A stretch of DNA of 32,000 nt from Gemmata obscuriglobus (GTDB lineage Bacteria > Planctomycetota > Planctomycetia > Gemmatales > Gemmataceae), in contig NZ_CP042911.1 of NCBI RefSeq assembly GCF_008065095.1, positions 1,560,001-1,592,000 on the forward strand, given 5' to 3'. Below, piece after piece: positions 23,471 through 29,584 of this stretch. How positions within the stretch are numbered: position 1 is the first letter of the stretch; every line of letters starts with the position of its first letter. Under the pieces are notes generated by a model. The model worked only from the letters and a program-made list of their open reading frames with translations, was not told the origin of the DNA and did no database searches. The position numbers and the translations under genes were made by a program.

Positions 23471-24865
23471 TTAGTGCTCCGCCCGGCCTTCCGTCACGGT
23501 CTCGCCGGCCAGGGCCTCTTCGGCCGCGCGGTGTCGGGTCAGTACGTAGGCTTGCGGGAAGAAACCGGCGGCGAAGATGAGGGCGGTGAGCGTCAGCACG
23601 GCGACCCGCTCGCGCGTCGTGATGCCCACCGGCACCCCCGGCGTGTACCGCGCCCCGGTGAAGAGCGCGAAGTACGCCCGCAGCACCGCCACCCCGTTCA
23701 GCGCCGCCGCGCCCACCACCACCAGCCCCACGAACAGGTTCGTCTCGACGGCGCCGTCCACCAGCAGTTCGGCCGCGATGAACCCGGACATGCCCGGGAA
23801 CCCCACGCTCGCCAGCCCGGTCAGGAGGAAGCACACCGCCAGCGCCGGCGACGCGGCGTACAGCCCGCGGAACTCGGACAGCGTCAGCCGGCCGAACCGC
23901 GCCTCCAGCGCGCGGAGCGTCAGCCCGAACCCGCCCAGGGACACCATCACCGACCCCCACAGGGCCAGCGCGCCCGTCAGGCTGATCGAGGTGTGCAGCT
24001 CCAGCCCCACCAGCACCAGGGACGCGTGGCTCAGAAACAGGTACGCGAAGAACCGCCGCGCGTCGGCCTGCACCACCGCCATGCCGGCCGCGTACACCGC
24101 GGTCGCCAGCGACACGATGCCGACCGCTTGCAGCACCCACTCCGGCGGGTGGAGCGGGAGCACCAACCGCAGCGCCGCGTACATCCCGGTGATCGGCGCC
24201 ACGAACAGGAGCGCCCCGCCGAACGAGCAGTTCTCGAACAGGTCGGTCACCCACACGTGAACCGGGCACGTGCCGCTGCGCACCAGTACGGCGCCCATGA
24301 GCAGAACCGCGGCCAGCGCGGACGCGTCGATCGCGCGCGCCAGGAGGCCGGTCACGAGCAGGGCCGCGAACAGGGCCATGTGGACCGCGTACACCCGCAC
24401 CGGCCGGCCGCGCCGGCGGAGCTCGAAGTACGCCGGGGCCACCCCCAGGAGCAGCAGCACGCCCAGGTCCCACGGCTCGCGGCACGAGAACGCGGCCACC
24501 CGCAGGGCCGCGCCGGCCAGGAGCCACGCGAACGAGAACCGCGTCATCTTGGTGCGGGCGGTGGCGAGGGCCGTGAGAAAGTGCAGCAGCGCCACGAGCG
24601 GCACCAGCGGCGCGCTCAGGGCGTCGAGGGTGAACACCGGCCGGCCGAACAGCTTCGGCAGAACGGCGGCGGGGCTGCTCCCGTCGGCCGCCCAGCCGAA
24701 CGCGAACCCGGCCCAGGCGGCGACCGCGCACGCCAGCCCCGCGCCCATGAACGCGAGGCACCAGCGCGACGCGACCCGGACATCGCGGACGCGCGAAAGG
24801 CACAGCGCGCCGGCGAGCGGGACCGCGACCGCGCACTCCAGCCACGGGACGGATCCGAACGTCAT
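23471..24865 (-). CDS. Second proton-conducting antiporter-like membrane subunit (PF00361, NuoM/NuoN/MrpD-like), divergent
   Basis: The protein is 464 aa and multi-pass. The start ATG overlaps the dabB stop (ATGA at 24862-24865). NuoM/N-like blocks include LDALSAPLVPLVALLHFL and FFAYLFLSHASLVLVGL. Key motifs are degenerate: REPWDLGVLLL instead of the WE..G block, and VRSGTCPVHVWVTDLFEN instead of GKSAq.PfH.WLPdAMegPTP. Confidence 0.85.
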   Translation of the reverse strand: MTFGSVPWLECAVAVPLAGALCLSRVRDVRVASRWCLAFMGAGLACAVAAWAGFAFGWAADGSSPAAVLPKLFGRPVFTLDALSAPLVPLVALLHFLTALATARTKMTRFSFAWLLAGAALRVAAFSCREPWDLGVLLLLGVAPAYFELRRRGRPVRVYAVHMALFAALLVTGLLARAIDASALAAVLLMGAVLVRSGTCPVHVWVTDLFENCSFGGALLFVAPITGMYAALRLVLPLHPPEWVLQAVGIVSLATAVYAAGMAVVQADARRFFAYLFLSHASLVLVGLELHTSISLTGALALWGSVMVSLGGFGLTLRALEARFGRLTLSEFRGLYAASPALAVCFLLTGLASVGFPGMSGFIAAELLVDGAVETNLFVGLVVVGAAALNGVAVLRAYFALFTGARYTPGVPVGITTRERVAVLTLTALIFAAGFFPQAYVLTRHRAAEEALAGETVTEGRAEH

Positions 24866-26343
24866 GATCCACTCTCCACGGCTTCGGGCGCGGGCGGTGC
24901 TGGGGCGAGGGCAGGGGCGGGGCGCTCATCGGGAGGGGGCTTCGGAAGCGCCGGCCGGGCGGGCGCGTCCGAAGCCCCCTCCTGGTTCAGGAACGCCGTC
25001 CACTGCCGCTCCCACCGGTCGAACAGCTTGAACAGCTTCACGAACGGCGCCGCGACGTAGTCACCGAGGACCGCGTCCAGGTACCCGCGCTCGAGCGCGA
25101 ACCGGTACAGCCAGGCGCGCCACCGGCCCGGCGCCACCGCGAGCGGCCCCGCCTGCTGCGGCAACCGGGCGCCCAGCGCGTTCTCCAGCTCCCGGTAGTC
25201 GCGCAGCAGCGACGGCGCCCGCACGAACTGGAGGGTCCGCAGGCACGCGTGCCCGAGCAGGTGCGTGAGCGCGACGTACCACATGAACGGCTCCCAGTGC
25301 CCGGCCCCGATCTCCGCGACGATCAGCCCCACCTGGGAGAGCGACGCGAACGACAGGGCGCTCTTGATGTCCGTTTGCACCGTGCCGGCGAGGTGGGCGT
25401 AGAGCGCGGTCAGCAGCCCCACCGCCACGATCGCGACGGCCAGCGGCGGCGACACCGCGATCAGCGGGCTGAGCCGCAGGAGCAGGAACGCCCCGAGGTG
25501 CACCGACAGCGCGCCGTAGAACACCGCGCTCGACGGGGTCGGGCCTTCCATCGCCCGCGGCAGCCAGCCCGAGAACGGCACCAGCGCCGACTTCCCCATC
25601 GCGGCCAGCAGCAGCAGCGAGCCGATCAGGAGCGCCTGCCCCTCGGTCAGCGTCGTCTGCCCGTCCGGCCACGACCGGGCGGCCATGAGCTTGTCGAAGT
25701 CGCCTTCGCCGGTCATGTGGTGCAGCGCGACCGCGGCGAACAGCAGGGCCGCGTCCGAGACGCGGTACACGATCCACACCCGGAACCCGTTCCGCGCCGG
25801 GTTGGCCCGCTCCTGGAAGAACGCCACCAGGAGCGCGCTCGACAGCCCGACCAGTTCCCAGCCCGCGAACAGCGTTTCGATCGTGTCGGCCAGCGACGCG
25901 GTCACCATCCCGGCCAGGAACACGGAGAACAGCACGAAGAAGCGGTTGTACCCCGGCTCGCGGTGCAGGTACCGGGTCGCGAACGCGGCGATCGTGCCGC
26001 ACAGCGCGAACGACAGCAGCGCGAGCGGCACCGACAGCCGGTCGAACTCGAACTTGATCGCGAAGTGGTAGTGCCCGTGGTCCGCGCCCCCGTGCGAGGC
26101 GATCGTCACCCAGTTGCCCAGGTTCACCACCAAATGCCGCTCGCCGGTGGCCAGCATCACCAGGAGCACCCCGAGCGTGGCCGCGAGCCCGGTCGCGATG
26201 AGGCACCGGCACGCGCGGTCGGCCGCGCGCTCGGTCACCGGCGCGCCGGCCAGCGCCGGCAGCCCCAAAATGACCACCAGAGCGAACGGGCACAGGATCG
26301 CGAGCGCCCCGAGGAACGACCCGAACTGGGCGAGGTCAGACAT
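24862..26343 (-). CDS. dabB: DabB-like proton-conducting membrane subunit (NuoL/MrpA family, PF00361)
   Basis: The start ATG lies inside the last codons of dabA (ATGTCTGA, 26336-26343). Canonical motifs are [15 protein letters not shown] and [42 protein letters not shown]. The C-terminal ~100 aa are amphipathic and then Pro/Ala-rich. Confidence 0.85.
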   Translation of the reverse strand: [493 protein letters not shown]

Positions 26344-29475: not shown

Positions 29476-29491
29476 CGCAATTGGCGTGCCG
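29476..29491 (-). promoter_or_regulatory. Candidate sigma-54 (-24/-12) promoter directed into dabA, embedded in a palindrome
   Basis: The minus strand reads CGGCACGCCAATTGCG, which is GG-N10-GC in the context of the TGGCACG-N4-TTGCW consensus. It is part of the palindrome ggcacgc-aattg-gcgtgcc (29472-29490). A sigma-54-dependent activator gene lies 1.8 kb away on the divergent strand. Confidence 0.5.
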
Positions 29492-29584
29492 GCGCGCTGC
29501 GTGCTGGATGGGGCCGTTGTTCACGTTCGGCCCGTGCGAAGTCTACAGGACTTCGGGTCACAAGTCGTCAGGTCCGCAAGTCGT

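Follow-up and report, generated by a model that had tools for sequence, protein, structure and literature searches.

A 32,000-nucleotide stretch of Gemmata obscuriglobus DNA (contig NZ_CP042911.1, positions 1,560,001 to 1,592,000; hereafter the window, with a G+C content of ~72%) carries on its minus strand three overlapping genes of a DAB-type system for CO2 uptake. They encode the catalytic subunit DabA, a short form of the NuoL-like subunit DabB (gene 2) and a NuoM-like third subunit (gene 3; TM, transmembrane helix). By the sequence evidence, this is a distinct clade-wide DAB architecture in Planctomycetota, reaching one metagenome-assembled genome (MAG) that is labelled Verrucomicrobiota.

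26336–29428 (probable; the long reading frame starts at GTG 29524), minus strand: dabA; PF10070; cytoplasmic beta-carbonic-anhydrase-like catalytic subunit
24862–26343, minus strand: gene 2, short DabB; PF00361 and PF00662; NuoL-like, TM1–11 plus a conserved cytosolic helical tail
23471–24865, minus strand: gene 3, third subunit; PF00361; full-length, 14-TM, NuoM-like

The open reading frames (ORFs) span 26336–29524, 24862–26343 and 23471–24865, and their frames are backed by an analysis of G+C content at third codon positions (GC3). The stop of dabA and the start of gene 2 share 8 nucleotides, ATGTCTGA, at 26336–26343, and the stop of gene 2 and the start of gene 3 share 4, ATGA, at 24862–24865; these overlaps are as described in the original prediction, made from the letters alone, which took the genes for a DAB-type locus made as one unit. 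Pfam searches gave PF10070 for DabA (E = 1.5e-235, residues 62–1000 against profile positions 2–747 of 747), PF00361 together with PF00662 for gene 2 (PF00361, E = 2e-43) and PF00361 for gene 3 (E = 3.8e-23), again as predicted. The dabA start at 29524, by contrast, is probably ~100 nucleotides too far upstream. A conserved sigma-54 element (29476–29491) sits inside the long ORF, and the start is therefore likely to be GTG 29428 or 29422. DabA residue numbers below follow the 1,062-residue ORF.

Conservation of the arrangement and of its subunits

A genome scan with the gene 3 family found relatives in 131 species-level genomes, and loci were analysed in the best 80, which belong to Gemmataceae, Isosphaeraceae, Pirellulales, Planctomycetaceae and one probably mis-binned MAG. 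Among the 68 loci whose upstream sequence suffices, 66 keep the order dabA–gene 2–gene 3 and two depart from it: L022 (gene 2, gene 3, dabA) and L008, which is taken up below. In 61 of 78 related loci the sequence allows the 4-nucleotide overlap of genes 2 and 3. A metagenome scan with a diverse DabA alignment added the 80 closest DabAs (37–72% identity), a sample that is biased towards relatives of the query and gives no measure of the frequency of this type among all DabAs. The same trio of genes is present in all 43 metagenome loci that extend at least 3 kb downstream, even where DabA identity falls to 37%, and the metagenome loci share the short DabB, its GWE motif and TM11 Arg, a DabA with His861 and without the finger Glu, and the Arg196 and residue-366 acid of gene 3. 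The predicted three-gene unit with a NuoM-like third gene is thus near-universal in the clade. By exact-sequence look-up, one distant member clusters with a protein from the Verrucomicrobiota-labelled MAG and another with a Planctomycetota-labelled protein; an exhaustive profile search returned 547 clusters at 50% identity (E <= 1e-30). Four canonical DAB2-type plasmid loci have one PF00361 gene each, and a Nitrobacter DAB1 locus has DabB, DabC, DabA and PII beside carboxysome genes. No other nuo or mrp genes (NuoJ/K/N, MrpB/C/E/F/G) were seen in the flanks of the window or in the gene table of locus L001; in the other loci, the screen covered the operon genes alone.

Gene 3 encodes 464 amino acids. 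Its family aligns over the full length with a profile of eight genuine NuoMs (hhalign, Prob 99.8, E = 6.5e-29), and the AF2 monomer model (pLDDT 85.6, pTM 0.87) has NuoM, ND4, NdhD and MrpD chains as its top Foldseek matches in the PDB (TM-score 0.82–0.85). Homologues are mostly auto-annotated as NuoM, and the closest other genome is that of Gemmata algarum JC673, at 95% for gene 3. The original prediction had called the protein degenerate. This holds for the NuoM channel residues E144, K265 and H322, which are replaced by Leu138 (a conserved Leu), Ile225 and Val306. The protein is not simply degenerate, however, because it is strongly conserved (62% mean column identity across 40 sequences, with numerous Arg, Glu, His and Asp residues that never vary), has the full NuoM fold and keeps Arg196 and the acid in TM12. 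Arg196 occupies the position of the TM7 Lys of NuoM, K234, and is Arg in 52 of 53 distant relatives, so that the reading of 'VRSG for GKSA' was right. The position of NuoM E407 holds Ala or Thr; residue 366 just after it, equivalent to NuoL D400, is acidic (Glu or Asp) in 51 of the 53. An acid also stands at residue 370 in 76 of 78 Planctomycete-family members, but this position varies in distant metagenomic relatives. The further reading of 'WD for WE' came from a misalignment, as the TM5 Glu position falls on L138 in the profile alignment and D133 lacks conservation. Some relatives of gene 3 are longer, at 590–714 amino acids, with N- or C-terminal extensions that could be fusions or extra domains (P0215, P0250, P0268 and P0287; L132, 12268–14298; L140, 11614–13383).

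Gene 2 adjoins dabA and is identical over 493 amino acids (100%) to a Gemmata obscuriglobus protein annotated 'NADH-quinone oxidoreductase subunit L'. Its bit score is 150 against Escherichia coli NuoL and 95–110 against five DabBs chosen for comparison, which are of DAB1 and DAB2 type and come from bacteria and one archaeon. The GWE and GKSA motifs are kept and E163 (TM5), K251 (TM7), H361, H365 and R369 are conserved, E163 and K251 being invariant or nearly so, which agrees with the claim that the TM5 Glu and TM7 Lys are intact. The same claim had described the subunit as canonical, which it is not: TM12–15 are missing and the TM11 Lys is an Arg. Sequence and fold matches to NuoL end near residue 384, and Foldseek aligns only ~375 columns of the AF2 monomer (pLDDT 77.9) to NuoL. 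After the TM11 motif there is no hydrophobic segment but a helical tail of ~110 amino acids with invariant residues, which presumably docks DabA. TM-like segments beyond TM11 number none in the gene 2 family, 2–4 in the five other DabBs and 5 in E. coli NuoL. The TM11 motif itself is HxxxHxxxR in the family (Arg in 69/70 genome and 67/67 metagenome relatives) and HxxxHxxxK in the five DabBs and E. coli NuoL, whereas the TM5 Glu is shared with E. coli NuoL and is F, T, I, I or L in the five DabBs. In DabB2 the TM5 position is Ile151, and a Glu restored there is harmful (DAB2 structure paper). At residues 275–282 of gene 2, the TM8 His of NuoL and canonical DabBs (SALxHA) is replaced by Tyr276, and an invariant H282 follows six residues later; this swap suggests a re-wired TM8.

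DabA matches the solved DabA2 of Halothiobacillus neapolitanus (9rd0_A) at E = 3e-68. The zinc ligands C534, H723 and C738 and the D536/R538 dyad align with those of DabA2 and DabA1, and all five residues are invariant in 52 genome and 67 metagenome relatives. The zinc site proposed earlier (Cys-x-Asp and His…Cys) is therefore sound, although its spacing is H-x14-C and not His-x15-Cys. The lid motif FGAAGFF and the NNP..DCGACGG loop are also kept. For the remaining motifs, we compared DabA with Nitrobacter DabA1 and with the DabA2-types of Mycolicibacterium, Methylocystis, Thiodictyon and Halobaculum. The DW(xxx)RPEWGL motif of all of these becomes DL(xxx)RPE[LY]GH throughout the clade, with both Trp residues replaced. 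The membrane finger/elbow segment is present, but clade-wide there is no acidic residue at the conserved Glu position of VE[SA]xG, a finger Glu that occurs in the DAB1- and DAB2-type DabAs aligned. In DabA2 this is Glu444, which is essential and proposed to substitute for NuoL K399/D400 (DAB2 structure paper). The His861 position is His in 63 of 67 relatives (loci L006–L168), Asn in 4 of 67 and Leu in 0 of 67. In DAB1, the conserved Leu825 of Thermocrinis albus is held to disfavour bicarbonate binding, and CsoSCA-type enzymes have a polar residue at that position (bioRxiv 10.64898/2026.05.01.722082). At the place of the strictly conserved DabA1 motif NNPYESALDCGACGG, Gemmata-type DabA has NNPHKSAYDCGACGG, and the DabA1 arm insertion is absent (alignment A4). 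The length of the protein would make it DabA1-like, an assignment that we reject because the same alignment shows a different N-terminal insertion and no DabA1 arm.

Proposed proton path and catalysis

We consider it rather probable that the three genes make a single DAB/DAC membrane complex, in which the pair of membrane proteins is obligate and the NuoM-like partner shares the proton path with the short DabB. From gene identities, folds, residue conservation, synteny and clade-wide signatures we infer how the subunits are arranged, which route protons take, which ion is coupled, in which direction the enzyme works and how expression is regulated; the structure models that enter this are of monomers. 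CO2 diffusing into the cell would be hydrated by DabA and trapped as cytoplasmic bicarbonate, driven by the proton motive force, as in a vectorial carbonic anhydrase. The short DabB would contribute the NuoL cytoplasmic-side residues that it keeps (E163, K251, H361, H365 and R369). For the third subunit there is a precedent in DAB1, a 200-kDa DabA/DabB/DabC heterotrimer seen by cryo-electron microscopy in T. albus, whose DabC is a half-size NuoM-like protein that superposes on the NuoM helices beside NuoL and is required in vivo (bioRxiv 10.64898/2026.05.01.722082). By analogy with DabC and with NuoM–NuoL in complex I, the translationally coupled third subunit would be obligatory and would lie against the TM5 side of DabB, and we infer that it is the functional counterpart of DabC. 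Because TM12–15 of DabB and the finger Glu are lost, and the TM5 Glu of DabB and the TM12 acid of the partner are kept, protons may pass laterally from the NuoM-like subunit to DabB, as at the complex I subunit junction. The proton path would then probably run across the subunit interface, with the partner acting as more than a passive scaffold.

Several observations weigh against this proposal. Four of the five checked NuoM channel positions are lost in gene 3 and the acid is shifted by one residue, a pattern that fits a non-conducting scaffold like DabC. At one locus, L008 (Gemmata sp. IIL30, HG799468.1, 6040–9365), genes 2 and 3 occur without an adjacent dabA; either dabA was lost or moved, or the membrane pair is used alone. 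As far as the models go, the third subunit could instead occupy the space of the missing TM12–15. The presence of His861 in place of the Leu thought to disfavour bicarbonate binding means that catalytic behaviour may differ from that of characterized DABs. The DabC family (241–270 amino acids, built from a DabC sequence on a Nitrobacter hamburgensis plasmid) matches the gene 3 family collinearly over residues 199–418 (hhalign, Prob 92, E = 6e-7), but its match to the NuoM profile is no weaker (Prob 96, E = 4e-9). In a control, the comparison with the gene 2 family was non-significant (Prob 0.5, E = 0.12), as was BLASTP of gene 3 against DabC. On these alignments both proteins are NuoM derivatives, which may or may not be orthologues sharing a DAB-specific ancestor.

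The most serious alternative is that the third protein serves only structure or assembly, as a 'long DabC' that stabilizes the short DabB and conducts nothing, protons moving through DabB and DabA. The original prediction, too, favoured a structural or regulatory partner over a second active channel. We judge this alternative less probable than a shared path but a fair possibility, because three of the five checked NuoM positions (E144, K265 and H322) are hydrophobic in gene 3. DabC sets an example: although essential in DAB1, it is hydrophobic at the channel positions and shows no chain of waters (bioRxiv 10.64898/2026.05.01.722082). A pure scaffold does not readily explain why the TM7 Lys position holds a nearly invariant Arg and the TM12 residue is always acidic across 37–72% DabA identity, or why DabB keeps its TM5 Glu, which in complex I points to the NuoM side and which the canonical DabBs examined have lost. 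It would also leave the system with no obvious periplasmic half-channel, as DabB TM12–15 and the finger Glu of DabA are both absent. That gene 3 is a stray left over from an unrelated Nuo/Mrp cluster beside dabAB, as its usual NuoM auto-annotation might suggest, is refuted by synteny, and we give this reading next to no credence: more than 100 loci conserve the order and the 4-nucleotide coupling, the neighbourhood checked (L001) showed no other nuo genes, and the family has its own sequence signature.

Two further alternatives concern the ion and the reaction. Coupling to Na+ instead of H+, or an Mrp-like MrpA/MrpD cation antiporter to which DabA is accessory, is quite improbable. Mrp antiporters are built around NuoL/NuoM-like pairs, the sequence and fold matches include MrpD and MrpA, and MpsAB has been argued to use sodium, as cited in the DAB2 structure paper. 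However, DAB2 is reported there to be without sodium dependence, the residues kept are the proton residues of complex I and DabB, the gene pair is nearly always tied to dabA, and the neighbourhoods inspected showed none of the genes MrpB, C, E, F or G. It is also unlikely, if slightly less so, that His861 restores a hydrogen-bond donor for bicarbonate binding and that the enzyme is reversible or dehydrating, serving pH homeostasis or CO2 supply. Such a role would suit the distribution of His and Asn, and never Leu, in the clade, given what is said of Leu825 in DAB1 and of the polar residue in CsoSCA-type enzymes. Against it stand the retention of all other catalytic and lid motifs and of the tight coupling to a proton module, and the frequency of SulP genes (a possible bicarbonate transporter) as neighbours.

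The shared proton path can be drawn in more specific form as a 'split-channel', which we put forward only tentatively. The NuoM-like TM9–13 bundle and the TM12 acid would form the periplasmic half-path, from which protons would be handed over laterally to the TM5 Glu and TM7 Lys of the 11-TM DabB and on towards the DabA active site. If this is true, the system would reproduce the lateral proton relay of complex I in a minimal, working form of two subunits attached to a carbonic anhydrase, and it could be an evolutionary intermediate that explains the origin of DabC; the His-for-Leu exchange would mark a mechanistically distinct, possibly ancestral, CsoSCA-like handling of bicarbonate.

No CO2-uptake system is more widespread among prokaryotes than the DABs, which are candidate parts for carbon-concentrating mechanisms in engineered crops and industrial microbes. 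Two structure papers from 2026 differ on how proton flow renders the carbonic anhydrase one-directional and on the role of DabC, and the Gemmata-type DAB may help to explain how proton flow is coupled to CO2 hydration. The clade amounts to a natural deletion-and-compensation experiment on the disputed coupling elements, in which the C-terminal helices of DabB and the finger Glu are gone, the inter-subunit Glu of NuoL is kept and a full NuoM-like partner with conserved charged residues is added; it should therefore interest those who study CO2-concentrating mechanisms and those who study complex I. It also offers a compact, redox-free setting for lateral proton transfer between antiporter-like subunits, a central issue for complex I. 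Gemmata obscuriglobus is a cultivable model organism, so that the predictions are directly testable.

Regulation and neighbouring genes

The operon is flanked by the following features in the window.

29476–29491, minus strand: sigma-54-type -24/-12 element cGGCACgccaaTTGCg, with a GGCAC-N5-TTGC core, 5' of dabA
29692–31230, plus strand: sensor histidine kinase, divergent; HisKA and HATPase_c
31231–32000, cut by the window end, plus strand: NtrC-type sigma-54-dependent response regulator; Response_reg and Sigma54_activat
22436–23425, minus strand: D-2-hydroxyacid dehydrogenase; PF02826 and PF00389 (2-Hacid_dh); 45 bp downstream of gene 3

The single match to the sigma-54 element in the window, with 2 mismatches, is not significant alone. 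Across related loci, the GGCAC-N5-TTGC core is found 5' of dabA in 15 of 57, and a pair of histidine kinase and sigma-54 activator genes accompanies 13 of these 15 loci as opposed to 2 of the 42 others (Fisher p = 4e-9). The histidine kinase is syntenic with dabA in at least 13 Gemmataceae loci and is a candidate regulator of the operon. Its N-terminal 290 amino acids gave no Pfam domain, and this part could be a CO2 or bicarbonate sensor. Expression of the Gemmataceae operon thus appears to be sigma-54-dependent under a dedicated two-component system, which would mean that heterotrophic Planctomycetes invest in regulated CO2 capture. At L008, the sigma-54-like element TGGCGCGTCAGTTGCA lies directly after the kinase gene and is followed by genes 2 and 3, with no assembly gap. 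An 809-amino-acid ORF on the minus strand at 29521–31950 was rejected as spurious; it has no Pfam match, and GC3 favours the plus-strand kinase and response-regulator genes.

A gene for a SulP-family transporter adjoins the operon in ~14 loci: L001 (3407–4975) and ~13 others, for example L012, L031, L046, L051, L062, L069 and L078. The frequency of this neighbour, which may be BicA-like, suggests a combined locus for CO2 and bicarbonate uptake. The dehydrogenase does lie 45 bp downstream as first described, and because there is no terminator-like site between it and gene 3, it may be co-transcribed with the operon in Gemmata obscuriglobus. As a member of the system it is rejected by synteny: among more than 80 loci it is found 3' of the operon only in the two closest Gemmata relatives (L006 and L007), and is thus a lineage-specific neighbour outside the conserved module.

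Elsewhere in the window, positions 9000–11000 form an island of low G+C content (0.57–0.63 against ~0.72) whose ORFs have no Pfam match. A 90-nucleotide tRNA-Thr(CGT) called by ARAGORN at the island edge (9272–9361, minus strand) is probably false, as Rfam gave no tRNA even at E <= 1. An ORF of 1,288 amino acids at 18170–22036 (minus strand) has a coding-like GC3 of 0.95, an AT skew of -0.26 and no Pfam domain, and is probably a large low-complexity or planctomycete-specific protein. Another, of 775 amino acids at 2878–5205 (minus strand), has ECF-type sigma-70 region 2 and region 4 at residues 210–349 only; this call is uncertain and the real gene is probably shorter.

Comparison with known systems

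The original prediction contrasted the operon with published DABs built from one DabA and one NuoL-like subunit, a view that is outdated; a third NuoM-like partner as such is not new, because DAB1 already has DabC. In the literature searched we found no paper that pairs DUF2309 with Planctomycetes, and among those listed for DabA together with Gemmata none was relevant by title; the search did not extend to Schmid et al. 2021 (three-subunit DACs). A three-protein DAB in which a short DabB is always paired with a full-size NuoM-like protein is previously undescribed.

In Halothiobacillus neapolitanus, the DAB1 system is encoded by Hneap_0907–0909. The Gemmata operon resembles DAB1 in having three subunits in one operon, namely a PF10070 catalytic protein, a NuoL-like protein and a NuoM-like third protein that has lost most NuoM channel residues. 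The third subunits themselves differ: DabC has ~250 amino acids, no Pfam match, a sequence that begins at NuoM TM7 and hydrophobic residues at all channel positions, whereas that of Gemmata has 464 amino acids, a PF00361 match and the full 14 TMs, and keeps R196 and E/D366. DabB1 has TM12–15 and the TM11 Lys and lacks the TM5 Glu, and gene 2 is the opposite on all three counts. Gemmata DabA is without four features of DabA1: NNPYESALDCGACGG, DWxxxRPEWGL, the Glu of the finger and the long 'arm' insertion. Gene order is B-C-A or A-C-B in DAB1 and A-B-third gene in the Gemmata type, and DAB1 sits by carboxysome/RuBisCO and PII genes, unlike the Gemmata operon.

DAB2/MpsAB (DabA2–DabB2, PDB 9rd0) shares with the Gemmata type the zinc site, the lid motif, the NNP...DCGACGG loop and a DabB TM1–11 with a NuoL-like cytoplasmic half-channel. 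DAB2 has only two subunits, however, and its DabB2 has 15 TMs. A periplasmic half-channel has been proposed there from the rearranged TM12–13 of DabB2 and Glu444 of DabA2 (DAB2 structure paper), and both elements, DabB TM12–15 and the finger Glu, are absent in the Gemmata type.

The cyanobacterial NDH-1MS (NdhF3/NdhD3/CupA, PDB 6tjv) likewise places a CO2-hydrating protein on a NuoL-like and NuoM-like pair, and gene 3 has, over its full length, one of its best matches in sequence and fold in NdhD3 (6tjv_D). This resemblance is an analogy and not one of membership: CupA is unrelated to DabA, NdhF3 is full length, and the complex is a redox-driven NDH-1 with many more subunits. The NuoL–NuoM pair of complex I and the MrpA–MrpD pair of Mrp match the folds of both Gemmata membrane proteins, but gene 2 is without the lateral helix and TM12–16, gene 3 is without NuoM E144, K265 and H322, and, unlike those pairs, the Gemmata-type membrane pair is nearly always tied to dabA. 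Taken at the level of sequence, the system is neither DAB1 nor DAB2 as these are defined, but an architectural variant of the known DAB/DAC family.

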